Shown here piece by piece: positions 4,578-41,341 of a stretch of DNA of 64,000 bases (positions within the stretch are counted from its first letter, which is position 1; each line of letters begins with the position of its first letter). The translations under genes and the position numbers were made by a program. This DNA comes from a virus: positions 10,338 to 74,337 of IMG/VR virus record IMGVR_UViG_3300035703_000062; one strand, written 5' to 3'. Under the pieces are notes generated by a model. It was not told where the DNA came from, searched no databases, and saw only the letters and a program-made list of their open reading frames with translations.

Positions 4578-5942
4578 TCACAAGAAATTTTCTAGCCAAT
4601 TGGACTCATCGTCTTTATTAGCTGCATGAATTGCCGCGGCCAGGGCGAAAGCATGGTCGTCAATACCAGTTTGTTTGCCGCCAGTGACACTCCATTGTCC
4701 TCCTGCTTTGTATACAACAGTGAGCCCTTTAATTTCACTAATAGCCTTCTCGTGATTGTAAATGTTCACTTGTCCTGCGTTGAACAGTTCACGCATCTTT
4801 GAGAATGCTTTTGTTTTAGAAGAAATGGTCCAAGTGAGTTCTTCAATGGGGTAGTCGCCAGTGAGGGCCTGGATTGTGCCCGCACTGTTGTACTGGTCCA
4901 TCACAATCTTTTCAAACACATAGAGCTTATGTTGCTCCCTTATCCAATCTTCAACGGCGTTAATGTTAACTTCCTTCCTGCCGTTAATTTCAAAATCCGC
5001 CACGAACGTGTGGAACTTGTCCACAACTAATATTCCATTGTCAAAGTGAACAATACAGGCGGTGTAATTATCTCTTCCAATGCCGCCACGGGCAGGGTCA
5101 AGCGATAGCACGTAGGAGCCAACGAAGCGCTCCTCTGGGGGGAGCGCTTTGCGTTTGTCATCAATGCAGGCCTCAACCACATCGGGGGAGATGAGGGCTG
5201 AAAGGTTGGCGGAGAACTGCGCTCCGTATTCAACGTTGAACTTATCGGGATCGCGCTGGCGCTCCAGTTCCAGGAAATCGCGAGAGATGGTTGGGTTCAT
5301 CTCCCACGTTGGGAGGTTGACCGCTTGTAGGTGTGGAAAGCGACCGGAGGCTGCCTCCTTGAAATGTTGGTAGAAGAGACCGTCAGTCAGCCATGGTGAA
5401 GACAGCTCAAGGATTTTGCCGTCGCTGCCGAACTGTGCCACTGCAGGAGAGAGTGCCTGATAGATGCCGTTGGCGCCAGAGTTTGCGTCGCCGTCCACGG
5501 CGAACGCAAGCTCGTCGAACACACAGGCGCAGCAGGCAAGACCACGAGCAGCACGACCCGATGTAGGAATAGCCTTGAACACACATCCATTGCTCATCTC
5601 AATTTGATCAGCGGTTTCGCGGGAGATTTCCTGCGCGAATGGGCTATCAAGAATGAGCTGGCGAATGTTATTAAGAGCAATGCGGCTCTGGTCCTGACTG
5701 TTTGCAACAGTAAGCACGTACCACTTCTCTCCTTTCCGTACTTTTGCTTTGTACTTGTCTTCTAGGACAAAGCAGATGTAGACGCACGCAACGGCGGCCA
5801 TGAGCGTTTTGCCGCTACGGCGGCCCAACGCCCACGTCGCCTGTGAAAACCCCCCTTCAAAGAACGAATCGAGGATTTCAGCCTGTTTGGGATAGAGGGC
5901 TAATCGAAGGGCGTGCTTTGCGAAGTCTGAACATCTAAGCAT
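4578..5942 (-). CDS. terL: Terminase large subunit
   Basis: YPKQ Q-motif, Walker A GRRSGKT, Walker B VFDE, LSSP coupling motif, RNase H-like SLDPA..D..DDHAFALA. Confidence 0.95.
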   Translation of the reverse strand: MLRCSDFAKHALRLALYPKQAEILDSFFEGGFSQATWALGRRSGKTLMAAVACVYICFVLEDKYKAKVRKGEKWYVLTVANSQDQSRIALNNIRQLILDSPFAQEISRETADQIEMSNGCVFKAIPTSGRAARGLACCACVFDELAFAVDGDANSGANGIYQALSPAVAQFGSDGKILELSSPWLTDGLFYQHFKEAASGRFPHLQAVNLPTWEMNPTISRDFLELERQRDPDKFNVEYGAQFSANLSALISPDVVEACIDDKRKALPPEERFVGSYVLSLDPARGGIGRDNYTACIVHFDNGILVVDKFHTFVADFEINGRKEVNINAVEDWIREQHKLYVFEKIVMDQYNSAGTIQALTGDYPIEELTWTISSKTKAFSKMRELFNAGQVNIYNHEKAISEIKGLTVVYKAGGQWSVTGGKQTGIDDHAFALAAAIHAANKDDESNWLENFL

Positions 5943-6430: not shown

Positions 6431-6501
6431 GTTGAGGAATGTTTCAGTACACGACAATGTACCCAGTTCTAGAATGATTGCAATATCAGGATTCCTTATG
6501 C

Positions 6502-8604
6502 ATGGCTGACGTTACACAAGGTGGGGATATGGTGTCGCTCGGGCATGCCACAGCGGGTGGTATTCGCGCCGATGGCCTGCAAAATGTGTTCACCGGGATG
6601 GGCACGAGCCGTGATAAGACCACCCGCACCACTGTTAAGCCGGTGTCTTTCATGGGCCATGAAGACCTTGAAGGTCTTTATGCACATTGGCTCATGCGGC
6701 GCATTGTTGACCTCGTGGCGGACGAATGCACCCGCGAGGGCTTTGAGATTTTGTTTGGCGGGGAGGGCGTCAATGCTGAAACGCTTTCTGGCGTTGAACA
6801 GGCCATTGAAGACCTGGAAATTCTGTCCTTCTTCAACGAGGCGGCCAAAACTTCTCGCTTATATGGCGGCAGCGCGTTGCTGCTCTACATCGACGATGGG
6901 CGTCCGTCCGATATGCCCGTTGACAAGAATAATATTCGCGCTGTGGAGGGTATGGACTGCCTGGATCGGCATCAGATTGCGCCGATCATTAGTGAAGAAA
7001 GTCTGTACGACTATTCCAAGGCAACTTACTACCAAATCATTTCTGGCGATCTAATTCAGCAGCCCAACCTCCGTGCCATCCATAAGGACAGAATTCTGCG
7101 GTTTGACGGCATTTGGCTGCCGTATCGCACGCGGCAGAAGAACTATGGCTGGGGCATGAGCGTGCTGCAGAGCGTCTATGACAGCTTCAAGCACTACTAC
7201 AGCGGCACCGCATCCATTGCCACCCTTCTTACTGAGTTTGACATCTTTGTGCATAAGGTGAGGGGCTTGGCTTCCATGCTGGCCGCTGGCAAGGAAGGGC
7301 AGGTAAGAGATCGCCTGCAACTGAATGACATGAGCAAGAGCATCTATCGCGGCTACGCGATTGATGCGGAGAAGGAAGAGCTGGCCTTTGTTAGCCGGCA
7401 GTTTGGCGGCGTGAGCGAAATCCTGGAGAAGCTGCGCATCGATGTGATTGCCGCTGCTGGCATTCCCCATACATTGCTATTTGGCCAGTCACCGTCTGGC
7501 TTGGGCGCTACGGGCCGTAGTGAAGAGCGTGACTTTGCCAAGACTTGCCATCACTACCAAGAAACTAATTTCCGAAAGCCTCTGACAAAGCTGATGGAAT
7601 ACATCATGCTGAGTAAGACTGGCCCCACTGGCGGAAAAGTGCCTGATAACTGGCGCGTGAGCTTCAAGCCTCTGTTTGAAATGAACGAGCGTGAGCTGGC
7701 TGACGTGCGTGCGCGGGTGGCTGCGGTGGATGCTCGTTACATCCAGGTGGGTGTGCTTACGCCGCAGGAAGTGGCAGATTCGCGGTTCGGAAAGAGCGAA
7801 TACAGCATTGAAACCACCATTGATCCATCGATCAAGCGGGAAATGCCGCAGAAGCCTGGCGACGGCAAGATGGCCGTTCCTCCGGGTGGTCGCGATCCGC
7901 TGGATCAGCAGAACGGCAGCCTGCCTATGGATGGATCTCGCGAGGCTTCGGAAAGCGCAGCGGAAGAGACGATGGATGAAGCGGGCCTCTACATGTCTCG
8001 CGATCTAGAGAAGGTGCGTGGCGACGTGACATTCACCGACAAAACCCTGCATTCACGAGCCGTTAGCGCTGCCAAATCGAAGTTCAAGGTGTGGCCTTCT
8101 GCCTACGCCAGTGGTTATGTCGTGCAGAAATACAAGCAAATGTACAAGGAGAAGCATGGCTCTCTGAGCGGCGCCTTCAAAGGCGACGGCGAAGAGCTTC
8201 ATGCCGACGACCTTGATAAGTGGTTTAAGGAGAAGTGGGTGAGGATTGGGGCTAATGGCGAAATCATGGGGCCTTGTGGAGCCCGTGAGAAGGGCGAAGG
8301 CAAGCCGAAATGCTTGCCCCAGGCAAAAGCACAAGGGATGTCGAAGGAAGAGCGGCAGCGCATTGTTGCCCGCAAACGTAAGGCCGATCCCAATCCTGAG
8401 CGTCGCGGTCCGGCCAAGATGGTGAGCAGTAAAACTGATGCCATTGAACCGCTCAAAGCGGAAGGCCTCATCCTGGGTGACATTGACGAAGCCGCGCTGA
8501 TCACGCAGGCTGATATTGACGCAGCTTTGAACCAGTGGAAGCAGGAAGCTCCTGAGCGCTTCAAGGACATTCTGGAGGCCGGCAATGTTGAGCCCACTGA
8601 GTGA
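6502..8604 (+). CDS. Portal protein (DUF1073/HI1409 family) with long C-terminal extension
   Basis: DGLQNVFTGMG, RRIVD, SRLYGG, HKDRILRFDG, WGMSVLQ, IPHTLLFGQSPSGLGATG, FKPL; about 250 extra residues after the portal core. Confidence 0.9.
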   Translation: MADVTQGGDMVSLGHATAGGIRADGLQNVFTGMGTSRDKTTRTTVKPVSFMGHEDLEGLYAHWLMRRIVDLVADECTREGFEILFGGEGVNAETLSGVEQAIEDLEILSFFNEAAKTSRLYGGSALLLYIDDGRPSDMPVDKNNIRAVEGMDCLDRHQIAPIISEESLYDYSKATYYQIISGDLIQQPNLRAIHKDRILRFDGIWLPYRTRQKNYGWGMSVLQSVYDSFKHYYSGTASIATLLTEFDIFVHKVRGLASMLAAGKEGQVRDRLQLNDMSKSIYRGYAIDAEKEELAFVSRQFGGVSEILEKLRIDVIAAAGIPHTLLFGQSPSGLGATGRSEERDFAKTCHHYQETNFRKPLTKLMEYIMLSKTGPTGGKVPDNWRVSFKPLFEMNERELADVRARVAAVDARYIQVGVLTPQEVADSRFGKSEYSIETTIDPSIKREMPQKPGDGKMAVPPGGRDPLDQQNGSLPMDGSREASESAAEETMDEAGLYMSRDLEKVRGDVTFTDKTLHSRAVSAAKSKFKVWPSAYASGYVVQKYKQMYKEKHGSLSGAFKGDGEELHADDLDKWFKEKWVRIGANGEIMGPCGAREKGEGKPKCLPQAKAQGMSKEERQRIVARKRKADPNPERRGPAKMVSSKTDAIEPLKAEGLILGDIDEAALITQADIDAALNQWKQEAPERFKDILEAGNVEPTE

Positions 8605-9247
8605 TCCGTGGCCCCGCTTTGATGCGGAGTGGGGCTATGACGCCAACCTGGGGCGCTATAGGCGCCCCTCTGGGCAGTTCATGAGTCAGAAGGCCGTGAT
8701 GGCGCTTGTGGATGGTCGCATTGACAAACTCGGCCAGAATCTACGGCGATTCACGCAGATGCTGGCTGATGGCAACATCACAATTGACCAATGGCAAGGG
8801 AGTGTCCGCGAGGCAATTAAGGCTGCTCATATTCAGGCAACAGTGCTTGGGCACGGTGGTAAGGATGGTATGGGCAGCGCAGAGTATGGCCGCATCGGCC
8901 AGAGGCTTCGTGCGGAATACACTTTCCTTCAGGGCTTTGCTAGCGATATTTTGGCTGGCCGCGTTTCTCCTGCCATGGCTCTTGCTCGTGTGCAGCTATA
9001 TGCTGAAAGCGTGCGAAGCTCTTACTGGGAAGGTGCCAGTCTTCGTCAAGGCAAGCAGGGATACTCTCTGATGCGACGCATTTTGGACCCGCAGGCAAAG
9101 CATTGTGATGACTGTCTTCGTTATGCGAGGGCTGGTTTAGTCGCGATGGGGAGTTTGCCGATGCCGGGACAGCGTTGTGAATGTCGGGCGAGGTGTCGCT
9201 GTTCTGTCGAATACAAGCGCAACGCTATACCGACAAGTCCCGTGTGA
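8585..9247 (+). CDS. Head morphogenesis protein (SPP1 gp7/Mu gpF-like)
   Basis: Follows portal; HCDDC..P..CECRARCRC Cys motif. Confidence 0.75.
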   Translation: MLSPLSDPWPRFDAEWGYDANLGRYRRPSGQFMSQKAVMALVDGRIDKLGQNLRRFTQMLADGNITIDQWQGSVREAIKAAHIQATVLGHGGKDGMGSAEYGRIGQRLRAEYTFLQGFASDILAGRVSPAMALARVQLYAESVRSSYWEGASLRQGKQGYSLMRRILDPQAKHCDDCLRYARAGLVAMGSLPMPGQRCECRARCRCSVEYKRNAIPTSPV

Positions 9248-9285
9248 AAACTGGGCCTAACATTGCGCAAGACATTGCGCTTTGT

Positions 9286-10482
9286 ATGGCCAAGATTCTT
9301 TACTGCGGAGACGCAGCAGTGCAAACGGGCTTCGGACGAGTGGCGGAAAGCCTGCTTCCTGAGCTTGCGAAAGAGCATGAGATTGTCGTTCTTGCCGTGA
9401 ACTGGTGGGGCGATCCTCATGAGCTGCCGTACAAGATGTATCCGGCTATTGCTGGCGGCTCCGATCCGTTTGGATCCCATCGCATACAGGAGCTGCTGGT
9501 CAAGGAGCGCCCTGACCTTGTGTTTGCGGTGAATGATATTTGGATTTTGAATAGGCTTTGGCAGGTGGCCAAGCCCCTGAAGGAACAGCTTGGTTTTAAG
9601 TGGTACGGCTATTTCCCCACTGATAGCTATGGCTTCTTCCCTGAGGTGTTTGAAGACTGCAAAGAATGGGATGGCATGGGCACTTATACACAGTTTGGCC
9701 TTGAGGAGGTACGCAAGGCTGGCTGTGAAATGCCGTGCGATGTGATTCCCCATGGTATTGACACATCGACATTCTTCCCTGTGAAGAAGGAAGAAGCGCG
9801 GGAGGCTATGGGCCTTCCGCAGGATGTGTTCTTTGTATTTAATGGCAATCGAAATCAACCGCGTAAGCGAATTGATTTGACTATTAAGGCCTTCATTGAA
9901 TTTGCCCTTGACAAGCCTGATGCTCGCCTATGGCTCAATATGGGCAAGAAGGACCAAGGATGGGATTTGATTCCACTGTTTAAGCGCATTGCTCGTGACA
10001 TGGGCTATGACGCTACTGGCAAGTTGGTGCTGACAAGCAAAGACTTTGACGTGACCAATTGCCTACCTGTTGATCGCCTTAATCTTGTTTATAACTCAGT
10101 GGATGTAGGCATTAACACTTGCATCGGCGAGGGCTGGGGACTTGTTAATTTTGAGCACGCCGCCACGGCTACTGCTCAGATTGTTCCAGACCACACATCG
10201 CTGAAAGAAATCTTCTACGAAATTCCGCGCATTCCCATTGAGAGCTGGGAAGTGGATTGCAATTATGGCCTTGATCGTGGAGTGCCTTCTGTTGAAGGGC
10301 TAGTGACAATCTTGAATCACTATTACAACAATCGCGAAGACCTCGACAAAGTGGCTGGATGGTGCTATGAACGTCTTCAGGCAGATGAATATAAGTGGGA
10401 AAACATCGGCGCCTTGGTGAACGGTATTATTAAGCGCACGCTTGAAGAGCCCACTGCTGGCAAGGGATTTGGCGATGACTAA
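9286..10482 (+). CDS. Glycosyltransferase, GT-B fold (GT4-like)
   Basis: TGFGRV, IPHGIDT, NRNQPRKR, YNSVDV..GEGWGLVNFEHAA. Confidence 0.92.
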   Translation: MAKILYCGDAAVQTGFGRVAESLLPELAKEHEIVVLAVNWWGDPHELPYKMYPAIAGGSDPFGSHRIQELLVKERPDLVFAVNDIWILNRLWQVAKPLKEQLGFKWYGYFPTDSYGFFPEVFEDCKEWDGMGTYTQFGLEEVRKAGCEMPCDVIPHGIDTSTFFPVKKEEAREAMGLPQDVFFVFNGNRNQPRKRIDLTIKAFIEFALDKPDARLWLNMGKKDQGWDLIPLFKRIARDMGYDATGKLVLTSKDFDVTNCLPVDRLNLVYNSVDVGINTCIGEGWGLVNFEHAATATAQIVPDHTSLKEIFYEIPRIPIESWEVDCNYGLDRGVPSVEGLVTILNHYYNNREDLDKVAGWCYERLQADEYKWENIGALVNGIIKRTLEEPTAGKGFGDD

Positions 10483-11161
10483 ACGTCGTATTAGCGTGGG
10501 AATTCCCACGCTTTCTTGTTATGACAAGCTTATTCGTTTGTGCAATCATTTATTGAATGATGAACACCCTTGCATTGAAGCAGAGGTGTTGATTCTCGAC
10601 AATGGTGGGCGGATGAAAGATAGTTCAGCAGTGGATGCACTGGCTGAATGTTGCGACTTGTCGAAATGGAAAGTGGCTGTGCCGCCATATAACCTTGGCG
10701 TGGCAAAGTCTTGGAACTATCTCATCCATCAACTTGGACAATGCATTATTGCCAATGACGATGTGGTGTTTGGTCTGAACGACATTGCGGCATTTTTAGA
10801 TGCCGCAACTGCCAATCCTGGATGCATTTTGCTGGAGACAAATCATTCAGTGGGAGGATTCTCTACGTTCTATGTAAATCGCCCCGAAAGGTGGCTTGAC
10901 ATGGGAGGTTTTGACGAGCTATTTGCGCCAGCTTATTTTGAAGACAACGATTGCCGCTGGAGGCTATTAGTTGCCGATAATCCGGCGGTCAAGGTGAATC
11001 TCCCATCGTGGTCGCATGACAACAGCAGCACACTAGAAAGCGGTGATGATCGCTATAAGCGCATGCATTGGTGTTGCTTTGAGCGCAACAAAGCTTATTA
11101 CAAGACGAAGTGGGGCGGATTGCCTGGGCATGAAGAATTCACTGTTCCTTTTGATAAATAG
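10475..11161 (+). CDS. Glycosyltransferase, GT-A fold (GT2-like)
   Basis: VGIPT, ILDNG, NLGVAKSWN, IANDD, GGFDE.FAPAYFEDND. Confidence 0.9.
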   Translation: MTKRRISVGIPTLSCYDKLIRLCNHLLNDEHPCIEAEVLILDNGGRMKDSSAVDALAECCDLSKWKVAVPPYNLGVAKSWNYLIHQLGQCIIANDDVVFGLNDIAAFLDAATANPGCILLETNHSVGGFSTFYVNRPERWLDMGGFDELFAPAYFEDNDCRWRLLVADNPAVKVNLPSWSHDNSSTLESGDDRYKRMHWCCFERNKAYYKTKWGGLPGHEEFTVPFDK

Positions 11162-11163
11162 TT

Positions 11164-11706
11164 ATGGCTCACGCTGAGCAGCAACAATTCGTTCAGAGCG
11201 TCAAGGCTTCTTTCTCATCGTTCTTTAAGGGTGGGCGGATTGTCGAAATTGGCAGCCTTGACATCAACGGCACCGTGCGCGGGTTCTTTGAAGAACCCGC
11301 TGAATACATTGGCGTGGATCTTGGTCCTGGCCGTGGCGTAGACGTGGTATGCGAAGGGCAAGATTATGACGGCGCTACAGATGGCTTCGACGTGGCTATT
11401 TCGGTGGAGTGCTTTGAGCACAACCCGCATTGGAAAGAGACCTTTGCAAATATGTTTCGCATGGTTCGCGACGAAGGGCTCATCGTGATGACTTGTGCAA
11501 CTACGGGCAGGCCGGAGCATGGCACTTCTCGCAGTGATGCGGGCAGCAGCCCTCTAACGGTGGGCAAAGGCTGGGAATACTACAAAAATCTCACTGAAAA
11601 CGATTTTCATGCTGCGTTTGAACTGAATAGCATGTTCTCGGATTATTGTTTTAGTGTGAATACAAGTAGTCACGATCTTTATTTCTGGGGGCTCGTCGAG
11701 AAATGA
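11164..11706 (+). CDS. Class I SAM-dependent methyltransferase
   Basis: VEIGSLDINGTVR, YIGVDLGPGRGVDVV, FDVAISVECFEH. Confidence 0.9.
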   Translation: MAHAEQQQFVQSVKASFSSFFKGGRIVEIGSLDINGTVRGFFEEPAEYIGVDLGPGRGVDVVCEGQDYDGATDGFDVAISVECFEHNPHWKETFANMFRMVRDEGLIVMTCATTGRPEHGTSRSDAGSSPLTVGKGWEYYKNLTENDFHAAFELNSMFSDYCFSVNTSSHDLYFWGLVEK

Positions 11707-11987
11707 CCGCAAAGCAGAAGCAGGCAAAAGTTCGTAAGGTGATGCGTGAATTTAAAGCCGGCACCCTTAAGGGCAGCGATGGCAAGCCCGTGAAGAATCG
11801 TCAGCAAGCTATTGCCATTGCCTTGAGCGAGGCTGGCATGGCTAAGAAAGATAAGAGCGACGCTTATTGGGATACCTACATCGACACAATGTGTGGTTCG
11901 ATGAGCAAAGAGGGCATGGAAGAAGAGGAAGAGGAGGAAGGTGAAGAGGAGGAGATGGAAGATGGCTCCTGCGGAAAAAAGCGCTGA
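11703..11987 (+). CDS. DUF6496-like basic protein with acidic tail; extended by a -1 frameshift
   Basis: KVRKVMREFKAGTLK..VKNRQQAIAIALSEA; ends at A AAA AAG CGC TGA. Confidence 0.8.
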   Translation: MTAKQKQAKVRKVMREFKAGTLKGSDGKPVKNRQQAIAIALSEAGMAKKDKSDAYWDTYIDTMCGSMSKEGMEEEEEEEGEEEEMEDGSCGKKR

Positions 11988-12014
11988 GGGGCGACGCTGA
12001 AGGCTTCGCCCCTC
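11975..12014 (+). promoter_or_regulatory. Programmed -1 ribosomal frameshift signal
   Basis: A AAA AAG heptamer 11975-11981 in the correct phase; perfect 9-bp stem GAGGGGCGA (11986-11994)/TCGCCCCTC (12006-12014). Confidence 0.8.
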
Positions 12015-12328
12015 CTCGGGCAGTAAGGAATGCTGCGCGGCGCGGACTTGAGCTGCGTCGCAAGCATGGCAAAGGAGGGCTTACCACTGGCGAAGCCGGT
12101 AAGCAAGGGATTGGCAGTGGCGTGGCCAGGGCAACCAGTCTGGCCAATGGCCAGAAAGTGAGTGAAGCTACATTGCGTCGTATGGTTGCGTTCTTTTCGC
12201 GCCACGAAAAGAACAAGAGCGGCGGAGAAGATGACGCTGGTTACATCGCCTGGCAACTATGGGGAGGCGATGCGGGGAGAGCGTGGGCAAATCGCACGCT
12301 TAAGATGTTGGAAAACCGTTCAAAGTAG
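11981..12328 (+). CDS. Frameshift-accessed conserved phage head-associated domain (PP.AVR.AARRGLELR..GVARA..L..RM..FF.RH..IAW.LWGG)
   Basis: -1 frame open from 11945 to 12328 with no ATG/GTG/TTG before 12122, yet the protein-like motif begins at about 12005. Confidence 0.75.
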   Translation, partial: ALRGDAEGFAPPRAVRNAARRGLELRRKHGKGGLTTGEAGKQGIGSGVARATSLANGQKVSEATLRRMVAFFSRHEKNKSGGEDDAGYIAWQLWGGDAGRAWANRTLKMLENRSK

Positions 12329-12330
12329 CG

Positions 12331-12645
12331 ATGGAAGGGATCAGGATCGTGCGCGAAGAAGAGGACGGTATCAGTGTGATGCAAGCGCTGCAGATCCTGT
12401 CTCGCAACGCCCATCGCAATACTTCCCGTTGGGAGCTGGTGGAAAAGCAGGTGTTCAAGAATGGACGCCTTGAAGAAACGCATGAATACGTAGTGAGTGT
12501 CTATGACATTCCTGATCCGCAGTTTGAGCCAGCCAAGTTTCTTGTTTTTGAGGCTGTAGCAATGGCGAAGGCCTATGTGATGGAAGGCATTGAAGAGCAG
12601 CTTGCTTCCATCCGTGACGAAGACGAAGAAGAAGACGAAGATTAA
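12331..12645 (+). CDS. Hypothetical acidic protein
   Basis: ORF tightly packed behind the previous stop. Confidence 0.65.
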   Translation: MEGIRIVREEEDGISVMQALQILSRNAHRNTSRWELVEKQVFKNGRLEETHEYVVSVYDIPDPQFEPAKFLVFEAVAMAKAYVMEGIEEQLASIRDEDEEEDED

Positions 12646-12932
12646 TCTTGCGTGGCGTGAACAACGAATGATGGGTAGCCCATCAGCCACAGTACACTGA
12701 GTTGAAATACGCCGCTCATTACTTTGATTTGAGCAATGTCCGGGGCCAGGATACCGTTTTCAATGCGAGATATTGTTGCTTGATCGCAATAAAGAATTTC
12801 TGCAAGGGCTCGCTGCGAAAGTCCGCAGCTAAGACGAGCTTCCCGCACTCGGGAACCTATTAGAAGCTTGGCTTCGGAGAGGGAGCTTTGCGGGCTTTTT
12901 ACTTTACGAGCCGTTAGATTCTTTTGTGTCAT
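12642..12932 (-). CDS. XRE-family helix-turn-helix transcriptional regulator
   Basis: IGSRVREARLSCGLSQRALAEIL..QATISRIENG..P..V.WLMG. Confidence 0.9.
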   Translation of the reverse strand: MTQKNLTARKVKSPQSSLSEAKLLIGSRVREARLSCGLSQRALAEILYCDQATISRIENGILAPDIAQIKVMSGVFQLSVLWLMGYPSFVVHATQD

Positions 12933-12992
12933 TTCATGCAGAATAGCATAATGACTACTATACTATTGAATTGAAGCCCTTACAGTATATGT

Positions 12993-14189
12993 ATGAGCAC
13001 CACATCTTGTCGGTACGACGTTTCTCCTATTGAGAAATATGAAATGACGCCTGAAGGTTATCTTCGGGTGTGGGCTTCAATTGCTCGTACTGGCATTCAG
13101 CATTACACCGATGCTGACGGTTCAATCAGGAAGGAATTCCGTCCTGAAACTGAAGTGGCGTCTCCAGAAAGCCTTGCCTCATTTGCGGGGAAGGCAATCA
13201 CGATGGAACATCCTCCTGTTCTTTTGGACAGTGAGAACACCAAGGATTACCAAATCGGTTTCACTGGCTCAGAAATTGTTTATGACAATGGCTTTGTTAA
13301 AGCCGTCATGACCGTGACTGACCGCGAAACCATTGATAAGGTGATGCGCGGCGATGTTCGTGAAGTGAGCGCTGGCTATAGGGTCAATTATGATCCGACG
13401 CCTGGCGTTACCGATAGCGGTGAGCATTACGACGGCATCCAAAAGGAGATCAGTGGTAATCACGTCGCTATCGTTCGTCGAGGCCGAGCTGGCCCGCAGG
13501 TGAGGTTGCATTTGGATCGTCTAGATGCCGCTGATCCATCTCTAATTTCCACAGAGGAAAACCAAACCATGAGCGCAAAAGTCAATTTTGACGGCGCTGA
13601 GTTTGAGGTGAGCGAGAGCGTTGCTCTGGCGATCACCAAAGAACGAGAAGACGCCAAGATGTCCTACGAGGACATGAAGAAGAAGTACGACGAGCTGCAG
13701 GCCGCTGCTGATTCCATGAAGTCCGAAATGGACGCCATGGCTGAGGAAATGAAGGGCAAAATGGATTCCGCCGAAGGGCGGGCCGATGCTCTGGCCGAGC
13801 AGGTTGACTCCCTGAAGGCTGAACTGGAAGAAGCCAAGCAAATCAACGTTGATTCCATCGTTGAAGATCGTCTGGCTCTGATTTCCAAGGCCAAGCCTGT
13901 GCTGGATTCTGCTTATGAATTCAGCGGCAAGAGCGCCCGCGAGGTGATGGTGGATGCCATCAAGGCAGTTCGCGGTGATTCTGTTGCTCTGGACGAGCGT
14001 TCCGACGATTACGTTCAAGCAATGTTCGACACCATCTCTGAAGACGCTGCCGGTCGCGCTGATTCCACCGAGGATCTGCGTAAGGCCGTGGCTTCCATTG
14101 CCACCCCTGCTTCCGCACCTTCTTCCTACATGGAGAAGCTGCAGAATGCCTGGAAGTCCCCTCTCTCCATTTCTAAGGAGGCTAAGTAA
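12993..14189 (+). CDS. DUF2213 prohead protease fused to coiled-coil scaffold
   Basis: TPEGYL..ARTGIQ.Y, ITMEHP, EVSAGY, NHVAIV.RGRAG; C-terminal coiled coil. Confidence 0.92.
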   Translation: MSTTSCRYDVSPIEKYEMTPEGYLRVWASIARTGIQHYTDADGSIRKEFRPETEVASPESLASFAGKAITMEHPPVLLDSENTKDYQIGFTGSEIVYDNGFVKAVMTVTDRETIDKVMRGDVREVSAGYRVNYDPTPGVTDSGEHYDGIQKEISGNHVAIVRRGRAGPQVRLHLDRLDAADPSLISTEENQTMSAKVNFDGAEFEVSESVALAITKEREDAKMSYEDMKKKYDELQAAADSMKSEMDAMAEEMKGKMDSAEGRADALAEQVDSLKAELEEAKQINVDSIVEDRLALISKAKPVLDSAYEFSGKSAREVMVDAIKAVRGDSVALDERSDDYVQAMFDTISEDAAGRADSTEDLRKAVASIATPASAPSSYMEKLQNAWKSPLSISKEAK

Positions 14190-14192: not shown

Positions 14193-14765
14193 ATGGCCGT
14201 AACTTTTACCACCACTGTCACTGGCGTTGCCGGCGGCGTGCAGTCCAGCTACGAGCTGGAACTGACTGCTGCTCTGGAAGGTCAGTTTGCTGACATTGCC
14301 GACAATAATGTCGCCACTTTCGTGAATGAAACTGGCGCTGGCGTTGCTTTTGGTGATCTGCTGGTTGTTAACACCGCAGGCACCGTGGGCAATTCTGCCA
14401 AGACTATCGCTGCTACTGGCGACACCGTGGTGGGCGTTAACGCTCTCACCTACATCGAAGAGAAGGCCACCGACGCTAATGGTCGCCCCGCTGCTTCTGA
14501 TAAGCAGGCTCTGAATGTTGTGAATCAAGGCGTGGTTGCCGTTTACGTGACTGGCGCTGTTGATCTCACTTCCCCTGTGCGCGTGTACTACGCCACTCAC
14601 ACTGGCACCACTGCTGGCGCACATCCTGGCCGTTTCTCGCATGCATTTGTGAGCGGCAAAACCCGCCGTCTGAGCAGCGCCCGCTGGGTGTCGAAGACAA
14701 CTGGCGCTGGCATCGCCCTGCTGGAGCTGAATGGCCCCAGCTTCACCCTTGACGCTGATTCCTGA
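14193..14765 (+). CDS. Capsid decoration/cement protein
   Basis: Between scaffold and MCP; Ala/Thr/Gly-rich beta protein with xFG and GxVxV motifs. Confidence 0.75.
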   Translation: MAVTFTTTVTGVAGGVQSSYELELTAALEGQFADIADNNVATFVNETGAGVAFGDLLVVNTAGTVGNSAKTIAATGDTVVGVNALTYIEEKATDANGRPAASDKQALNVVNQGVVAVYVTGAVDLTSPVRVYYATHTGTTAGAHPGRFSHAFVSGKTRRLSSARWVSKTTGAGIALLELNGPSFTLDADS

Positions 14766-14776
14766 TAGGAGGCACC

Positions 14777-15691
14777 ATGAGCGAATTTCGTATGGATGAA
14801 GCGGGTCTGTTTCTTGAGCGCCAGCTTGAGTACATCCGCCCTCAAGTATTTGAAGTCGAATATGCCGACATCAAATACCCCACAATCCTGCCTGTAACCA
14901 GCGAAGCTGGTCCTGGCGCACAAACCTTCACCTATCGCATCATGGATGCGACTGGTGACTTCAAGCTCATCTCGGACGCTGCAGACGATCTGCCGCGTGC
15001 TGATGTGAGCCAAACCGAGAAGAGCCTCAACATCCGCTCCTTCGGTGGTTCCTTCGGTTACACCGTCCAGGAACTGCGTGCCGCTCAAATGGCCAACGTG
15101 GCTCTTGAGCAGCGTCGTGCCGCCGCTGTGCGTCGCGCTTACGAAGAGAAAGTGGAGCAAGTTGCTCTGTTCGGTGAGGCTTCGGTGAGCCTGGCTGGTT
15201 TCTTCAACAACGCAACTGTTGACGTGCTGGCTGCTGATAAGTGGTTCACTGGCGCTACCGCCACTGGCACCACTGCACAGGACATGCTGGAGCTGCTGAA
15301 CCAGGGTGTTACTGCCATCATCAATGGCTCCAACATGAAGGAGCAGCCCGACACCATCCTGATGGCTTGGGAAGATTACAACGTGGTTTCCACCACTCGT
15401 AACTCTGACTCTTCGGATGTGACTGTGCTGGAGTACTTCCTGCGCACCAACCCCTTCATCCGTAACGTTGAACCCATCAATCAGCTCGATGCCGACAAGA
15501 GCGAGCTGAGCAAGAACCGGATGGTCATCTACAAGCGTGATCCCGGCAAGGTGCAACTGCACATTCCTCAACCCCTGGAACTCTTCCCGCCCCAACAGCG
15601 CGGTCTTGAGTTCATCGTTCCCGCCCATGCTCGCGTGGGTGGTGTCGCTCTGTACTATCCGAAGAGCGTCATCTACGTTCAGGCTCCCTGA
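14777..15691 (+). CDS. Major capsid protein (DUF2184, HK97 fold)
   Basis: FLERQLEYIRPQV, DLPRADV, FGYTVQELRAA, GGV.LYYP; AGGAGG RBS. Confidence 0.93.
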   Translation: MSEFRMDEAGLFLERQLEYIRPQVFEVEYADIKYPTILPVTSEAGPGAQTFTYRIMDATGDFKLISDAADDLPRADVSQTEKSLNIRSFGGSFGYTVQELRAAQMANVALEQRRAAAVRRAYEEKVEQVALFGEASVSLAGFFNNATVDVLAADKWFTGATATGTTAQDMLELLNQGVTAIINGSNMKEQPDTILMAWEDYNVVSTTRNSDSSDVTVLEYFLRTNPFIRNVEPINQLDADKSELSKNRMVIYKRDPGKVQLHIPQPLELFPPQQRGLEFIVPAHARVGGVALYYPKSVIYVQAP

Positions 15692-15759
15692 GGAAGCCCC
15701 TAGGTAGTTCATCAAGAAAAGGGTGGTTAAGCTAATTTGCAGTTCTTTTTGAACACACA

Positions 15760-16146
15760 ATGCTTATTGCTTACCGCCCTGAACTTGAGAATCCGCCGCG
15801 AGAGGCCAGTTTCGGAGTGATTACAAAGCGAGGCATGATTAGCCTCGCTCCCGGTCTTAATCAGGAAATTCCTGATGAACAATGGGAAGAAGCAAAACTG
15901 AACCCAACGGTGCAGGGTCTTCTTCGTATTGGGGCCATTGAGGAAATGAAAGAGAGGGTGGAGATTGAGACCATTCCCAAATCCGCCGAAAATCTTTCAC
16001 AACTTCCTCTTAGTCAGGCCATCCAGGCCATCGAACTTCTCCACGATGAGGACAAACTCGGGGATTGGAAGAAGATTGAAGGTCGCGTGAGGGTGCGCAA
16101 CGCGATTAACCGTCGCCTTGAAGCTATTCGCACAGGAAAGGCATGA
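15760..16146 (+). CDS. Hypothetical virion-module protein
   Basis: ORF after MCP; LAPGLN and R..VR.AI..RL motifs. Confidence 0.65.
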   Translation: MLIAYRPELENPPREASFGVITKRGMISLAPGLNQEIPDEQWEEAKLNPTVQGLLRIGAIEEMKERVEIETIPKSAENLSQLPLSQAIQAIELLHDEDKLGDWKKIEGRVRVRNAINRRLEAIRTGKA

Positions 16147-31772: not shown

Positions 31773-33323
31773 ATGCCTGACATCGAAGAAGGTAAACAGG
31801 TAGTAACGGTTGGCCGCAGTGAGCCGATTGCTGCCGGTCAGGCCACGATGGCCAACTCGCTGCCGGTTGTAATTGCGAGCGATCAAAGTCCAGTGCCCAT
31901 CCTGGACAATCTCAGTGCGCCTTCCGAGGTGCATGATGACCTGCTGGGCAACCCTCGCGTGCAGAGCAGTCTGCAACTGTGGGACAGCACAAACATCCTT
32001 GCCATCGATCCAAAGGCATGGAAGATCACTGCTGACCCCACGGGCACGCCTGATTATTCCAGCGTGACGCACCTGCCGCAGGAAAGCGGTGCGCAGTTGC
32101 TGATTAACACAAACGCACCGAACAGCACTATTGCTCGGATGCAAAGCCGTCTGGTATTTCCGTATCAGACAGGCCGCATTACTGACGCCAGCTTTGGCGT
32201 GAGCATGCTGAAGGACACAAATGCCACTATTGAGTTTGGCATTTTCGATGGAAGCAACGGTTATATCATTCGCATTATTGGCAACGATTTGTATTTCGTT
32301 CGCCGCACTAATTCTGGCGAAAGCCCGCAGAATCACGGCGCACCAGTGGGTAGCACTGACTTCACAGTGAGCGACCCCAGCAGCCTGTACAACAACCATC
32401 GTTATCGCGTGCTGCCTTCTGATCCTTCCGTGATGGAAGAGATTGTTCCGCGCAGTGCTTTTAATGGTGACAAGCTCGATGGCGCAGCTCCCAGCGTTCA
32501 CACGCTGAGTCTGTCCAACGTGACGATGTTCCGCATCATGATGGGCTGGTACGGCGGCTCTGCGGCGCGTCTGATGGCCTATGTGCCGGTGGATGAGAAT
32601 CTGCCCGCTGGCGCTACTGCTAAGAATGCACGTTGGGTGACCATTCACCAGCTCAACACTTGCGACCGCATTCCATTCCCCAGCCTGGGCAATCCCAATT
32701 TGCCCATGACCTTTGAGGTGACTAAGACTGGCAATATTGCACAGGCTGTCTATCTCAAGGTGTATGGCACCAAGGCTGAAATCGATGGTGGTGACGCTAG
32801 TAAGTACGACATTTTCTCTCAGGAAAGCGCCGCTGCCAGCATCAACCCTGGAACAGTGCGTCCGCTGCTGACCATCCGTTGCAAGGAGAACATCACCAAC
32901 GATGATGGCAATAGCAAGCAGAACATCATGCGGGTGGTGCCACTTATGGCCAACCTCTCCTCGCAATATCGTGCCAAGTTTGCGCTTGTAAAAAATCCCA
33001 CTGCGCTGCTGATTAGTGGCAGCACTGTTAATCCAGCCACTGCTTCTGGCGTGTTCACGTCGACTGCATCACTGTCCGCCATTGAATACAACACCACTGC
33101 TACTGGCCTGACTGGCGGCGAGCCTGTTGCGACGTTCTTTACTGGTGATGATGACGGTCAAAACATTATCCTTGAAGAAATTTTCCGTTACAACCGTGAA
33201 TTCCTCACTCGTCCCATCTCTAATGACACTGGCGAAAGTGGAGACATTCTCGTTCTGACTGCTCAGTCTGTTGCCGACAGCGGCAACACTGTCGCCGGCT
33301 CCATTACCTGGGGCGAACGTTAA
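31773..33323 (+). CDS. Virion structural protein, lectin-like family paralog 1
   Basis: FPYQTGR, FGIFDGSNG, PRSAFNGDKLDG, WYGG. Confidence 0.7.
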   Translation: MPDIEEGKQVVTVGRSEPIAAGQATMANSLPVVIASDQSPVPILDNLSAPSEVHDDLLGNPRVQSSLQLWDSTNILAIDPKAWKITADPTGTPDYSSVTHLPQESGAQLLINTNAPNSTIARMQSRLVFPYQTGRITDASFGVSMLKDTNATIEFGIFDGSNGYIIRIIGNDLYFVRRTNSGESPQNHGAPVGSTDFTVSDPSSLYNNHRYRVLPSDPSVMEEIVPRSAFNGDKLDGAAPSVHTLSLSNVTMFRIMMGWYGGSAARLMAYVPVDENLPAGATAKNARWVTIHQLNTCDRIPFPSLGNPNLPMTFEVTKTGNIAQAVYLKVYGTKAEIDGGDASKYDIFSQESAAASINPGTVRPLLTIRCKENITNDDGNSKQNIMRVVPLMANLSSQYRAKFALVKNPTALLISGSTVNPATASGVFTSTASLSAIEYNTTATGLTGGEPVATFFTGDDDGQNIILEEIFRYNREFLTRPISNDTGESGDILVLTAQSVADSGNTVAGSITWGER

Positions 33324-33332: not shown

Positions 33333-35417
33333 ATGGCTTATTACCAGCTTCCCCATGAGGTGGGGCAACGACGTGTTGTCGTTGCCAGTGGCGCTAATGC
33401 AGGTACAGTCCTCCAGGAGGCTGGTGATTTTCCTTTCGGTCAGGACGTAAAGGCATCAGGCCTTCCCATTGTCCTGCCACGATTTGGTGGCGACATGGCA
33501 GTGAGCTTCTATAAAGAGAAGCCCACTGAAATCAGAGGTGATATTTTTGGCAATCAAAGGGTTGAGAAAAGCCTCAGCCTGTTTAACTACACGGATGATT
33601 ACGACCTCCGTGAAGACATTTATGTCAGTGAAATTCAAGGTTTGAATGAAACTGGCGAGGATGATCTAGAAAGCGCAAAGTGGAGCCAGCTTCAAGATGT
33701 GCTAGTGGAATACAGCCCGCTGCCAACGGGCTACATTCAGCACGATCCTGACCGTCGCGCTGTTCGCATTGAACTAGCAAAAGCAGGCGGCGGCTTCCAG
33801 CGCGTAAGGATTAGCACGAAGAAACGTTTCCGCTACCAAACTGGTCGCGTCATTCGCTCTTCAGTGTGCTTGCAGATGAGCTTGGCAGATTTGCCAGCCT
33901 GTGAGAAGCTATGGGGAATTGGCGACACGCTGGATGGATTCTTCTTCCAGATTATTGCCGATGGTAGTGGAGACAATTTCCGCATTGTTCATCGTCGCTC
34001 TTCGGGCGACGGCCTGCCCAAGGAAATCATTGTTCCGCGCAGTCTGTTTAATGGTGACAAGCTTGATGGCACCGGCAGCAGCAATGCCGCTATCGACTTC
34101 ACCAAGAACTGCATGTATCTGGTGGAGTGGGGCTGGTACGGCGCCAGTTCTGCTAGGTTCTATGCCTTTGTCGTAGACGAGGCTACAGACCTCCCTGCAA
34201 CCGTTTCAGGCATCCCTCGTGGGCGCTGGGTGCTGATGCACGAGCTGCTCATTCCTGACAGTCTGGATGCCCCTAGTCTCGGCACTCCCGCGCTGCCTTT
34301 CACCATTGAAATTAGCAATAGCGGCTACCTCGTCGAGCCTCAGTACATCATCAAATATGGACTGAGCCTGCAGATTGATGGTGGTGAAAGTGAAAAAGCT
34401 GATATGCATGGCCTCGACCTTTCAGAAGGTCGCGATATTGGTCCCGTGCTGGGCGGCTCTGAAGCCGCCCACTATTTCCCGTTGTTTGCACTGAGAGCAA
34501 AAGACTTTGCCCCAGGGCGTATCCTGAACACACTCCAGGGCCTGCCAAAGTCCATGGATGTGATGAGCAATTATCGCACCGAGCTTGCCATCATTCGTGA
34601 TCCTGAGTTTGGCTCGATCAACGAGGAAGTGGGCCATATTAATGGCACGCTTCCTGCCGGTAGCGAAGGCAGCTATGGTTTGGCTGAATCCATCCTGCAA
34701 GGGCTTGATGAATTTGGCGATGTAATTGATTTGGTTACAGAAGCGCCAGAGGAGCTTCCCATCTCAGTGGAGGATGCCTATTCGGCCACTGACATGGGAA
34801 CTCTGGAGGGCAACTTTGTTCTCAAGCAGACCGTTAATGGTAAGAAGCTTGGCACGTTCTTCATGGCTGCGAACAAGCCAGAGCGTGTTGATCTGACAAA
34901 GATTTATGACTTGGTGCGTGAAGCTATTACCACTGAATACGACAGTAAGTTCGATTTCCCCATTGTCAATGAAAAATATGAAATTACAAACATTGGTGGC
35001 GATGGCACGCTGACACTGGGGCGTAAGCACACGCTTGAAATTGGCTTCCGCTTTGTTATTGGTCTCACCACTTATTACATTGTTGCCACGCCAGGCGTAA
35101 GCACCATTCGCGTTAGTACATCTCGTGGAGGGGCGGTGTTTACCGGCTTCACTGGAGCTGGTATCACCGCTGGGGACTTTGGTACTGCTTTTTACGATTT
35201 GGTGATTAATCAGGCTATTGCATCTCGCGCTCGCCCCATTGATCAAGGCGCTGTTGTATTTGCAGCTCGTCGTGTTGATGATGCATTGCTGACAACATCA
35301 CTGGCCGAGAAGGATGCTGAATGGATGAAGCTCTATAACTGCACTACCACAAACACGTATAATGTGGTTAGCCCAGCGCCCGAAACGCGAGTGTTCTTGA
35401 ACTACGGGCTGCGATAG
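33333..35417 (+). CDS. Virion structural protein, lectin-like family paralog 2
   Basis: FRYQTGR, WGIGD..DG, PRSLFNGDKLDGTGSS, WGWYGA. Confidence 0.7.
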   Translation: MAYYQLPHEVGQRRVVVASGANAGTVLQEAGDFPFGQDVKASGLPIVLPRFGGDMAVSFYKEKPTEIRGDIFGNQRVEKSLSLFNYTDDYDLREDIYVSEIQGLNETGEDDLESAKWSQLQDVLVEYSPLPTGYIQHDPDRRAVRIELAKAGGGFQRVRISTKKRFRYQTGRVIRSSVCLQMSLADLPACEKLWGIGDTLDGFFFQIIADGSGDNFRIVHRRSSGDGLPKEIIVPRSLFNGDKLDGTGSSNAAIDFTKNCMYLVEWGWYGASSARFYAFVVDEATDLPATVSGIPRGRWVLMHELLIPDSLDAPSLGTPALPFTIEISNSGYLVEPQYIIKYGLSLQIDGGESEKADMHGLDLSEGRDIGPVLGGSEAAHYFPLFALRAKDFAPGRILNTLQGLPKSMDVMSNYRTELAIIRDPEFGSINEEVGHINGTLPAGSEGSYGLAESILQGLDEFGDVIDLVTEAPEELPISVEDAYSATDMGTLEGNFVLKQTVNGKKLGTFFMAANKPERVDLTKIYDLVREAITTEYDSKFDFPIVNEKYEITNIGGDGTLTLGRKHTLEIGFRFVIGLTTYYIVATPGVSTIRVSTSRGGAVFTGFTGAGITAGDFGTAFYDLVINQAIASRARPIDQGAVVFAARRVDDALLTTSLAEKDAEWMKLYNCTTTNTYNVVSPAPETRVFLNYGLR

Positions 35418-36239: not shown

Positions 36240-38087
36240 ATGGCGCAAACGCGATTGATTTCGGATCTTGTTGAGCTTGTAACGCCCAACAATGACGATG
36301 TGTTTGTCGTTGTAGATAATACGACCAACCCCTCGCTTTCTGTTACAAAGCGCATCACTTATGCCAATCTGAAGGAAGGTCTTCAGGACATGATTGATCT
36401 GCTCGTGTCTGGTGGCACGGGCATCAATGCATCGTATAACGACGGCAGCAATACTCTTACATTGTCAGTTGTTGCTGATACTACTGTTCAGCAAAGTGTT
36501 ATTTCGTCTGGCGGCACCACCATTGGTACGCGGCGCGAAATCAATTTTATTCCTGGTGCATCAATCCTGCTTTCTGGTACTGATAATCCTGGAAGCAACC
36601 GTGTTGATCTTGCCATTCGCACTAATGCAGTTTCGACTGCTAGCAATCTGGTAGGCGCTGGCACCACTTATAACGTGCTGTCCAGCATTTCAACGCTGGG
36701 CGATGGCACGCAGGATCTGCGCTTCCGCACTCTCAAGGCTGGTAGCGCGAAAGTATCGCTTGGCTTGGCCGATGGTGGTAACTCTGTAACGGTTGACATT
36801 GTTCCCAGTGGCATCAGTATTAACGATCTGAACACTGCATCGCCTCTTGCTATTGGCCTTGGTGGCACAAATGCCACCACGGCCTCGGATGCACGAAGCA
36901 ATCTTGGTGCAGCCAAGGCTGGTGACAATACGGACATCACAAGCCTGTCTGGCCTGACCACTGCCTTGTCAGTGAACCAAGGCGGCACGGGCGGCAATAC
37001 TGCTCAAGTGGCACTGCGTAACTTGCAGGGCCTCAACAGCGTGGCAAACGTCGCCACTGCTGGTCAGAGCATTGTTGCCAATGCTTCTACGCTTGTTGCT
37101 GGCAATTATCGAGCTGAACTGCGCGGCATTCGCGCTGGTAGCAGCAAGATCACTGTCGGCGTGGTGAGCAATGACATTAGTATCAATGCCAACTCCGATT
37201 TGATTCTTGCTGGCGCCACGCAAGATGTCAATTTCAATGGCTACAAGCTGACTAATATTGGTTCGCCTGTGTCATCTACTGACGCAGCCACTAAAGATTA
37301 TGTGGACAGCGTTGCACAGGGTCTGGTTGTTAAAGAGGCTGTGCTGCTGGCTACGACTAGCGGGCAAGTTGGTACGTATGCAGCTAGCGGCCAAACCTTC
37401 ACTTATACAGCCACTGGCACTCCCTCCATCGATGGCGTGAGCGTTACCGCCACTGGCACGCGAGTGCTGTTTAAGAACCAGGCGACGGCCAGCGAGAATG
37501 GTATTTATGAGCTGACCACTTCTGGTGATACTGGCATTAGCGCCATCTTCACTCGCGCATTGGACTACAACACCGATGTGGAAGTAGAAGCTGGTAGCTT
37601 CGCCTTTGTACTGAGCGGCGCAACAAATGCTGGTAAGCAATATGTGCAGACCACTCAAGCAGCAGTGCTTGATACCGACCCATTGGTCTTCACTGTTCTG
37701 AATGATCTTGTCATTCCAGACGACAGTATTTCTAATAGCAAGCTGGAGCATATGCCAGCATTGCGCGTTAAGGGCACGGTTGTTAGCGGCACGCCGCAAG
37801 ATCTGACGGCAGATCAAATTATTGAAATTGTGAACAGTGGTGGTACTACTGCCATTGATCAAGCTCGCGTGACCATCACTGGTGCGCTGGATAGCAATGC
37901 ACGAGTGGGCGTGAGCGTCACGGGCGTGACTGCCGGAACCCGCCGTAAGATCAACTTTATCCCCAGCGGCATTGCAGAGATTAGTGCTGCAGATGATGCT
38001 GGCAATGAAGAAATTGATGTGGTGATTAACGTGCCTGCACCAACTGCAGGAGGCGTCAGTCTCGGTTTGGCCGTTGCACTCGGCTAA
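36240..38087 (+). CDS. Tail fibre protein
   Basis: L.I..GGT.A..A..AR.NLG repeats, DAATKDYVD, RVLFKNQ....NGIY; C-terminal SLGLAVALG. Confidence 0.85.
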   Translation: MAQTRLISDLVELVTPNNDDVFVVVDNTTNPSLSVTKRITYANLKEGLQDMIDLLVSGGTGINASYNDGSNTLTLSVVADTTVQQSVISSGGTTIGTRREINFIPGASILLSGTDNPGSNRVDLAIRTNAVSTASNLVGAGTTYNVLSSISTLGDGTQDLRFRTLKAGSAKVSLGLADGGNSVTVDIVPSGISINDLNTASPLAIGLGGTNATTASDARSNLGAAKAGDNTDITSLSGLTTALSVNQGGTGGNTAQVALRNLQGLNSVANVATAGQSIVANASTLVAGNYRAELRGIRAGSSKITVGVVSNDISINANSDLILAGATQDVNFNGYKLTNIGSPVSSTDAATKDYVDSVAQGLVVKEAVLLATTSGQVGTYAASGQTFTYTATGTPSIDGVSVTATGTRVLFKNQATASENGIYELTTSGDTGISAIFTRALDYNTDVEVEAGSFAFVLSGATNAGKQYVQTTQAAVLDTDPLVFTVLNDLVIPDDSISNSKLEHMPALRVKGTVVSGTPQDLTADQIIEIVNSGGTTAIDQARVTITGALDSNARVGVSVTGVTAGTRRKINFIPSGIAEISAADDAGNEEIDVVINVPAPTAGGVSLGLAVALG

Positions 38088-40588: not shown

Positions 40589-41341
40589 ATGGGACAAGGC
40601 GGATACATCGGCGCAAGCCCTGCTTGGCAAGGAGGACCTACTAATCCCTATCCCTATCTGCCTGGTGCATGGCAAATTCAGGAAGCGTATCGCAGAGGGC
40701 GCAGTGGCACTTGGACTCGGGCAGGTATTCCAGTGATTGGTGAGCCTTATCAAGGCGGCTTTTTTGCTGGATTTATTAGTCATACTGCTGACGGCAACGC
40801 CACGCACGCATTAATTGTGGCGCCACGTGCCACCGGGGGCATGGGTGGCTCTTATCCGCGTGACTCGCGGTGGAAGACCAGTCAAACCACGACAGTTGGC
40901 ACTACAAGCCCGTTTGATGGCGCCGCAAATACCGCTGCAATAGTTACTGCTGGGATTGCCGCTCATCCCGCTGCTCAATTTTGCGTCAGCCTTAGCATTG
41001 GCGGATATACAGATTGGTATCTTCCCTCGCGGTATGAGCTTGATATTGCCTATCAAAACTTAAAGCCAACAACCTACAATAACGACACATCTTGGGGCGT
41101 CAACCCTTATTCAGTGCCAGCGCGTACAGTCAATCGCACCACTGGAACCCCCTTGAGAACGTCAGTAGCCGCCTTTCAAGATGGCGGAACAGAATCCTTT
41201 GTTACGAGCTACCACTGGTCATCCACTGAGGGCAGCGCCGCGAATGCGTGGACAGTGTACTTCATTGATGGCTCCCATCTAAGTACTACCAAGACCGACA
41301 CCACATGGTACGTTCGTGCCTTCCGCAAAGTAGCGCTTTAA
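40589..41341 (+). CDS. DUF1566/Lcl C-type-lectin-fold adhesin, DGR target-type protein
   Basis: IGEPYQGGFFAG, GGYTDWYLPSRYEL, C-terminal WSSTE..NAW.V.F..G......K......VRAFR variable-region pattern. Confidence 0.85.
   Translation: MGQGGYIGASPAWQGGPTNPYPYLPGAWQIQEAYRRGRSGTWTRAGIPVIGEPYQGGFFAGFISHTADGNATHALIVAPRATGGMGGSYPRDSRWKTSQTTTVGTTSPFDGAANTAAIVTAGIAAHPAAQFCVSLSIGGYTDWYLPSRYELDIAYQNLKPTTYNNDTSWGVNPYSVPARTVNRTTGTPLRTSVAAFQDGGTESFVTSYHWSSTEGSAANAWTVYFIDGSHLSTTKTDTTWYVRAFRKVAL

Follow-up and report, generated by a model that had tools for sequence, protein, structure and literature searches.

How the portal is incorporated at one vertex of phage and herpesvirus capsids is only partly understood, and a copy of the coat protein N-arm carried on the portal would be a simple and testable answer for one group of cyanophages. 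In T4, internal head proteins share a short peptide, the capsid targeting sequence, which directs them to the prohead scaffold core. This peptide forms the N-terminus of several soluble cargo proteins, from which gp21 cleaves it at L-x-E sites. In the P22 procapsid, D14, E15, and E18 of the coat N-arm are bound by the hook of the scaffolding protein, and the hooks also mediate portal contacts (PMC12005531). One scaffold element touches both the portal and, via acidic residues, the N-arm of the coat protein; these contacts are asymmetric and tolerate the 12/5 mismatch (PMC12005531). In Pam3, the N-arm of the major capsid protein (MCP) is still present in the mature shell, where it pairs with the cement protein N-loop (PMC9942802). 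At the HK97 portal vertex, a 12-fold portal is joined to the 5-fold shell via flexible scaffold contacts (PMC10275583). In this study, we analyzed a phage portal protein whose C-terminal tail carries a peptide resembling the N-arm of the MCP of the same phage.

The window, which is the whole stretch of 64,000 nucleotides analyzed here, comprises bases 10338-74337 of the record of a complete virus of 74,337 bp with direct terminal repeats. The virus is an S-CBS4-like cyanosiphophage. Its portal DNA is 83.5% identical to that of Synechococcus siphovirus S-CBS4 (bases 1-1558), and the gene order agrees with that of S-CBS4. The features of the head module are as follows.

4578-5942, minus strand: terL
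6478..8604, plus strand: portal gene, 708 aa from TTG (PF06381 Phage_portal_3 at aa 67-418, E 5e-66; phrog_146 portal, E 7.5e-114)
7813..7971, plus strand: portal tail linker, about aa 446-498, with a variable stretch, a PPGGRDP..NG.LP.DG.R block, and a variable acidic stretch
7972..8019, plus strand: portal copy of the motif, MDEAGLYMSRDLEKVR, portal aa 499-514
8035..8373, plus strand: DUF5872 module, basic, aa 520-632 (PF19197, E 8e-12)
8434..8601, plus strand: acidic C-terminal end of the portal tail, aa 653-708
between the portal and protease-scaffold genes: glycosyltransferase/methyltransferase block
12993..14189, plus strand: head maturation protease fused to a scaffold-like coiled-coil C-terminal half (PF09979 DUF2213 at aa 18-172, E 5e-44)
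14193..14765, plus strand: cement or decoration protein (PF22758 Phage_cement, E217 gp24 / Pam3 gp6, E 1e-16)
14777..15691, plus strand: MCP, 304 aa, HK97 fold, DUF2184 family (PF09950, E 1.4e-56; phrog_264)
14792..14839, plus strand: MCP N-arm copy of the motif, MDEAGLFLERQLEYIR, MCP aa 6-21

The portal core covers positions 6-355 of the 357 positions of the PF06381 (DUF1073) profile, which places the protein in this family, and the Pam3 portal (8hds) matches it with E 3e-23. Since the S-CBS4 portal is annotated as beginning with MADVTQ, the ATG at 6502 is a likelier start than the TTG at 6478. Portal residues are numbered throughout from the TTG at 6478; with the ATG at 6502, the motif would be aa 491-506. 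The protease-scaffold protein matches the head maturation protease family phrog_530 (E 6.5e-106) and gives weak coiled-coil-type matches at aa 213-347. The solved relatives of the MCP are 8hdt, 9kmg, and 7kmx, with E 4e-34 for Pam3 gp7 (8hdt). The AlphaFold2 (AF2) model of the MCP has a mean pLDDT of 82.5, and profile and model together assign the protein to the DUF2184/PF09950 HK97-fold family.

The motif of the portal tail stands directly before the DUF5872 module and outside the PF19197 profile, whose match of 46.2 bits against a gathering cut-off of 27.5 supports assignment of the module to this family. Upstream of the acidic stretch, PPGGRDP..NG.LP.DG.R forms a second conserved block of the tail. 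The linker varies in length among relatives and contains acidic SREVEDSRE-type (EDSR-type) repeats in them. The acidic C-terminal end is kept in all relatives including S-CBS4. The S-CBS4 portal lacks the second half of DUF5872, and the tails of some relatives carry an extra Cys/His mini-domain. The AF2 model of portal aa 430-708, made from 28 sequences, was weak overall (pLDDT 53.8); within it, the DUF5872 helices reached a pLDDT of 70-80, and the linker of about 55 residues before the motif stayed below 50. The preliminary description had placed the motif on a flexible linker between the portal core and extra C-terminal domains, and this was borne out by the same model, in which aa 474-515 including the motif have a pLDDT below 50 and no secondary structure. 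We also considered the motif as part of the DUF5872 fold and set this aside, as AF2 does not pack the motif on the domain in this weak model. The Pam3 portal has its crown and barrel inside the capsid. To our knowledge, portal C-termini point into the capsid interior in all known portals. The portal C-terminal tail of S-CBS4-like phages must lie within the capsid.

The MCP copy of the motif is predicted to lie on the flexible N-terminus of an HK97-fold coat protein, where the model has a short helix of low confidence at 7-16 and the mean pLDDT is 43 over aa 1-10 and 50 over aa 11-20; the portal copy is internal. Because both copies fall in segments modeled by AF2 with low confidence, they look like peptides that need a partner and may fold on binding, which we count in favor of a functional link. 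Two explanations of the motif as a protein start were rejected. An internal portal start at M499 is contradicted by the relatives, most of which have a residue other than Met there. For the MCP, a second start at M6 does not fit the AGGAGG, which lies 4 nt ahead of the first ATG, and some relatives have Leu in place of M6.

We next compared the two peptides. Portal aa 499-514 and MCP aa 6-21 are identical at 10 of 16 residues, with conservative Y/F, M/L, and V/I changes, and the first 14 nt are the same. These figures and both sets of coordinates agreed with the original claim of a likeness. BLASTP of portal 495-517 against MCP 2-24 gave 12/23 identities at 28.1 bits with a pairwise E of 5e-4. 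A third copy of the motif was sought in six frames and in the whole 74-kb genome, and exactly two copies exist, one in the portal and one in the MCP, a further point for a functional link. The protease-scaffold protein and the other head proteins contain no D-x-A-G-[LIVM] or longer motif.

The likeness may be a coincidence. The portal peptide would then serve the DUF5872 tail module as its conserved leader or junction and have its own role; for example, it could position the cargo domain, help it fold, or bind DNA or a different head protein. When the 91 proteins of the window (20,000 aa) were compared all against all by BLASTP, the portal/MCP pair ranked 6th (database E 0.03, portal as query). 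At least one pair of at least 28.1 bits was present in 9 of 40 shuffled proteomes (mean 0.33 such pairs), which favors coincidence. So does a gapped match of similar strength between portal aa 486-540 and an unrelated ORF at 49995-50435 (pairwise E 4e-4), a chance-type match to the same portal stretch. The single-sequence match is at chance level proteome-wide. The shared 14 nt point the same way. In 64 kb, chance alone would give about 7.6 exact 14-mer pairs on the same strand, and direct-repeat families of at least 14 nt number at least 60 in the window, some of them exact over 15 nt. Since the 14-nt identity is expected by chance, it carries no weight.

The conservation of the portal peptide was then determined. 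A scan of IMG/VR for the portal gave 556 relatives, and the best 80 of the 556, which are 72-98% identical, were kept and analyzed together with S-CBS4. The motif was found at the same position in 81/81 of these sequences, in the core form D-x-A-G-L-[FY]-L-x-x-D-L-E-x-x-R. The fuller portal consensus is D-[SAE]-A-G-L-[FY]-L-[PSE]-[RGK]-D-L-E-[KEH]-[VI]-R-G-D-V. Across 28 non-redundant tails, L504, D509, L510, and R514 do not vary, and A502, G503, and E511 hardly do; a single locus of the 81 (L076) carries L510P. The motif is kept while its flanks drift and the linker before it varies in length, and this argues for a functional link with the MCP. On these alignments, the portal peptide is a real conserved linear motif that is lineage-specific and under purifying selection.

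This conservation allowed the comparison to be repeated with a profile. A 17-column HMM of the portal motif, built from 27 sequences, was searched against the window proteome without the portal. It matched MCP aa 8-21 at 14.2 bits (E 6.4e-5), and the next protein scored 0.2 bits. None of 300 shuffled proteomes reached 14.2 bits, the maximum being 7.0. As a control, 978 sliding 17-residue profiles were made from clade alignments of 10 conserved proteins, and each was searched against the rest of the proteome. The match of portal 499 to MCP 6-21 came out on top at 18.3 bits, and the next independent matches scored 12.8, 10.8, and 8.3 bits. The profile match thus stands far above the shuffles and above all 977 other control windows, which speaks against coincidence. 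Our own estimate of p, corrected for about 1200 non-overlapping proteome windows, is about 0.005-0.08. All the motif sequences descend from one ancestor, and they therefore represent one evolutionary event and not many. The profile-level match is nominally significant and, after correction, suggestive but not conclusive. The preliminary description had named a chance score against shuffled proteomes as the outcome that would speak against the likeness; this was obtained for the single sequence (9/40) and not for the clade profile (0/300).

The distribution of the motif outside the clade bears on the same question. When portal tail aa 401-591 was searched against 50,697 phage records, only S-CBS4 matched, and 1585 other phage records matched the portal core only, up to about aa 445-486. 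More distant Phage_portal_3 portals stop before the motif or carry other tails. Absence from homologous portals had likewise been expected to count against the likeness, and the motif is absent in these distant portals but present in every S-CBS4-like one examined. The portal of Manatee Spring phage (MW202455) has no tail. Beyond the clade, the closest relative in culture is Aphanizomenon phage CL131, whose portal of 1393 aa has another kind of tail that contains InPase-like and MuF-like parts. A search of this CL131 portal for likeness to the N-arm of the CL131 MCP (36962-37771 of that record) gave nothing, with a best E of 2.1. Like the portal studied here, CL131 gp012 and the proteins of phrog_220, annotated as "minor head protein and DNA pilot", have a Phage_portal_3 core and a long tail that takes extra domains into the head. 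They differ in having other tail domains and no N-arm-like peptide, whereas the S-CBS4-type tail carries DUF5872.

A HMMER search with portal aa 470-660 against 1.84 billion representatives found DUF5872 in 1931 clusters (50% identity) of very varied proteins. The carriers include other portals (P0014, P0029, and P0030) and multi-domain basic proteins, and nearly all matches begin past the motif. Judged from these matches, DUF5872 is a widely travelling module. The domain is very widespread, and we know of no described function for it. Searches of IMG/VR with two of the DUF5872 portals (P0030 and P0014) gave domain-level matches only, or a relative that lacks DUF5872 and has an MCP of another type. 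A limited literature search on DUF5872, DUF2213, and S-CBS4 found nothing bearing on the motif. In the HMMER search, the motif region was covered only by S-CBS4-like portals or fragments (P0008, P0009, P0010, P0015, and P0031) and weakly by a distant tail, P0012. In that tail the region reads DVLYDAVLDLENLRED, with one extra residue; it keeps LY..(L)DLE.LR.D and not the AGL part. No relatives of the P0012 tail were found in viral and metagenome scans. In unrelated proteins, the edge of the DUF5872 module reads R-x-D-x-x-F-T-D-K. R514 and D516 therefore represent the module edge, and the AGL-aromatic-L part is clade-specific. Both findings favor coincidence, as the last motif residue belongs to an edge common to unrelated DUF5872 proteins and the P0012 tail keeps its part of the motif without AGL. 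The second conserved block of the tail favors it as well, since that block has no likeness to the MCP.

We also examined how the N-arm varies among MCPs. In 23 loci with both genes, the S-CBS4-like N-arm is almost invariant, [ML]-D-[DE]-A-G-L-F-L-[EDQ]-R-Q-L-E-[YF]-I-R. Because it hardly varies in the clade, co-variation between portal and MCP cannot be read from it. When S-CBS4-like, CL131-like, and more distant MCPs (22-38% identity) were aligned, all had D7 and L17, and nearly all had R5 and E18. Distant MCPs usually read R-L-D-A-P-T-V-G-A-F-x-R-E-L-E-Y, one residue longer between D and L-E, and one distant MCP (P0320) has L-D-S-A-G-L-T-P-F-F. A profile of the distant, CL131-like N-arms searched against the proteome did not detect the portal motif, and its best portal score, -3.7 bits, fell elsewhere in the protein. 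A profile of all 33 N-arm sequences scored -2.0 bits against the portal. Since the distant profile is blind to the motif, the portal peptide resembles the S-CBS4-type N-arm specifically and not a signature of the family, a further point for coincidence. On the other side, the match falls on the N-arm, which in P22 is the scaffold-binding part of the coat protein (PMC12005531). We consider that coincidence, at somewhat under an even chance, is about as likely as a functional link, and that a shared protease site is less likely. If coincidence is correct, the portal would still have a modular cargo tail with DUF5872 and a linear motif conserved in it, a finding that is useful but ordinary.

A copying event at the locus was considered next. 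The 5' end of the MCP gene may have been copied into the portal tail while the tail was assembled, leaving a relic that today has no function connected with the MCP. Two features would suit a relic: the modular and recombinogenic make-up of the tail, as seen from the missing half of DUF5872 in S-CBS4 and the Cys/His mini-domain elsewhere, and the confinement of the likeness to this lineage. However, the DNA shows no trace beyond coding. The 48-nt stretch is identical at 31/48 nt, and synonymous sites in shared codons, counted by eye, agree at 5/9. A DNA-level copy or gene conversion was rejected on the same grounds, since chance accounts for the 14-nt repeat and the synonymous sites show no unusual likeness. 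The strong conservation of the motif across about 30% portal divergence also argues for a present function. A relic is thus improbable.

The two peptides may instead share a site for the DUF2213 prohead protease, at which a cut next to D-x-A-G-L would trim the MCP N-terminus and free the DUF5872 cargo in the head. In line with this, D-x-A-G-L is the best conserved core common to both, distant clades keep R5-x-D7 almost without change at the MCP N-terminus, and DUF5872 occurs on many carriers including other portals, as expected of packaged cargo. However, the shared stretch extends 14 residues beyond the putative cut and is longer than usual sites. No conserved R or K of the portal faces MCP R5, and the protease-scaffold protein, normally the main substrate, lacks the motif. 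The persistence of the Pam3 N-arm in the mature shell argues against a cut behind the motif, although the retained part may not cover the aligned residues (PMC9942802). A T4-like L-x-E site was looked for as well; the spacing does not fit, and none is present. Overall, we regard a shared cleavage site as unlikely.

The reading that we prefer is a functional link between the portal motif and the MCP N-arm, to which we give somewhat less than an even chance, with docking to the protease-scaffold protein as its likeliest mechanism on the analogy with P22. The portal motif and the MCP N-arm would dock onto the same partner in the procapsid. The P22 hook is the closest analogy, and on this ground the scaffold is proposed as the common partner. 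The most probable partner would be the scaffold half of the DUF2213 protease-scaffold protein; a socket on neighboring MCP subunits that normally takes the N-arm would be a less likely one. With twelve such flexible tails, the portal could be tethered to scaffold or shell during nucleation in spite of the 12/5 symmetry mismatch. The motif, its conservation, its place in a tail predicted to be disordered, and its lineage-specific likeness to the N-arm are observed; that the peptides bind, what they bind, and any part in assembly are inferred. That the portal recruits scaffold, or plugs into the shell, via twelve flexible peptides mimicking the N-arm is possible, and we lean somewhat against it.

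The described systems also differ from such docking. In P22, the portal is contacted via folded portal surfaces and not via a coat-like tail peptide, and the families are unrelated in sequence. In HK97, flexibility resides in the delta (scaffold) domain of the MCP itself (PMC10275583), whereas here it would be on the portal. Compared with the T4 capsid targeting sequence, only two copies exist in this genome and one of them is internal in the portal, so that the sharing among several head proteins seen in T4 is not found here. If docking is correct, it would represent a new mechanism by which the portal nucleates a procapsid and the 12/5 mismatch is bridged, and it would provide a short peptide tag to load proteins into such capsids. 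The phages concerned form an abundant freshwater and estuarine cyanophage group, of which S-CBS4 is in culture.

Single positions of the motif bear on the functional link in both directions. The portal motif retains the D, the aromatic residue, and the L-E of the MCP N-arm; it does not retain R5, and it has D for Q16. Against the link, the invariant portal D509 stands opposite the invariant MCP Q16, MCP R5 has no match in the portal, and most relatives have Pro-Gly or Pro-Arg facing [EDQ]-R of the MCP. For the link and against coincidence, the matched positions are enriched among the conserved ones, since by our own tally portal and MCP agree at 8/9 conserved portal positions versus 3/7 variable ones. 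The portals of some relatives are closer still to the MCP, for example those of L004 and L005 with AGLFLEKDLE.

The tail of the portal protein differed in its modules among related phages, and all versions of the tail retained the motif (portal residues 499-514, window 7972-8019), which resembles the N-arm of the major capsid protein (MCP). Many relatives carried an extra Cys/His-rich mini-domain of about 60 residues (GC.G.H ... MPCSTH) on the 3' side of the DUF5872 module. The second half of DUF5872 was missing from the portals of S-CBS4 and of loci L038 and L078. As judged from these sequences, the portal tail is modular. Directly upstream of the motif, the linker in the clade of 72% identity contained tandem acidic EDSR / SREVEDSRE units in variable copy number.

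Variable elements of the portal tail in related loci (L) and proteins (P)
Linker immediately before the motif: EDSR / SREVEDSRE repeats; L020, L021, L037, L039, L043 and others
Aligned between window 8433 and 8434: Cys/His mini-domain; L003, L009-L012, L015, L034, L079 and P0009

In Aphanizomenon phage CL131 (L082), gp012 (8800-12981) is predicted to be a portal fusion of 1393 residues, in which a Phage_portal_3 core is joined to a MuF-like region and to a domain similar to the InPase-like domain of L088. These domains of gp012 were assigned by reading the sequence. The CL131 portal is a putative example of polyvalent cargo borne by a portal.

The N-arm of the MCP was compared in an alignment covering the S-CBS4-like clade, the CL131-like clade and two more distant MCPs. 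As R5-x-D7 (window 14789-14797), L17 and E18 were kept across these clades, down to 22-38% identity, the N-arm conservation suggests a conserved contact or processing signal. The entire MCP gene is spanned by a longer antisense ORF of 387 residues (14597-15760, minus strand), which led longest-ORF gene calling astray and is probably spurious. The NCBI record of P0180, an MCP relative with 94% identity, assigns this S-CBS4-like MCP to an actinobacterial MAG (Candidatus Nanopelagicaceae), which reflects either faulty binning or a clue to the hosts of the freshwater clade.

Other matches were found within the proteome. In the control scan, the second-highest-scoring hit of a short profile, at 12.8 bits, paired these two genes:
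10442-11161, GT2-like glycosyltransferase (residues ~109-125)
57534-58121, unannotated ORF (residues 171-181)

The adjacent genes at 38566-40542 and 40589-41341 had a common N-terminal stretch of 45 residues (40% identity, E 4e-5), and three large genes at 31773-33323, 33333-35417 and 44102-45319 were paralogues (E 5e-41 to 1e-9). The two adjacent and the three large genes likely represent tail-fibre-type modules.
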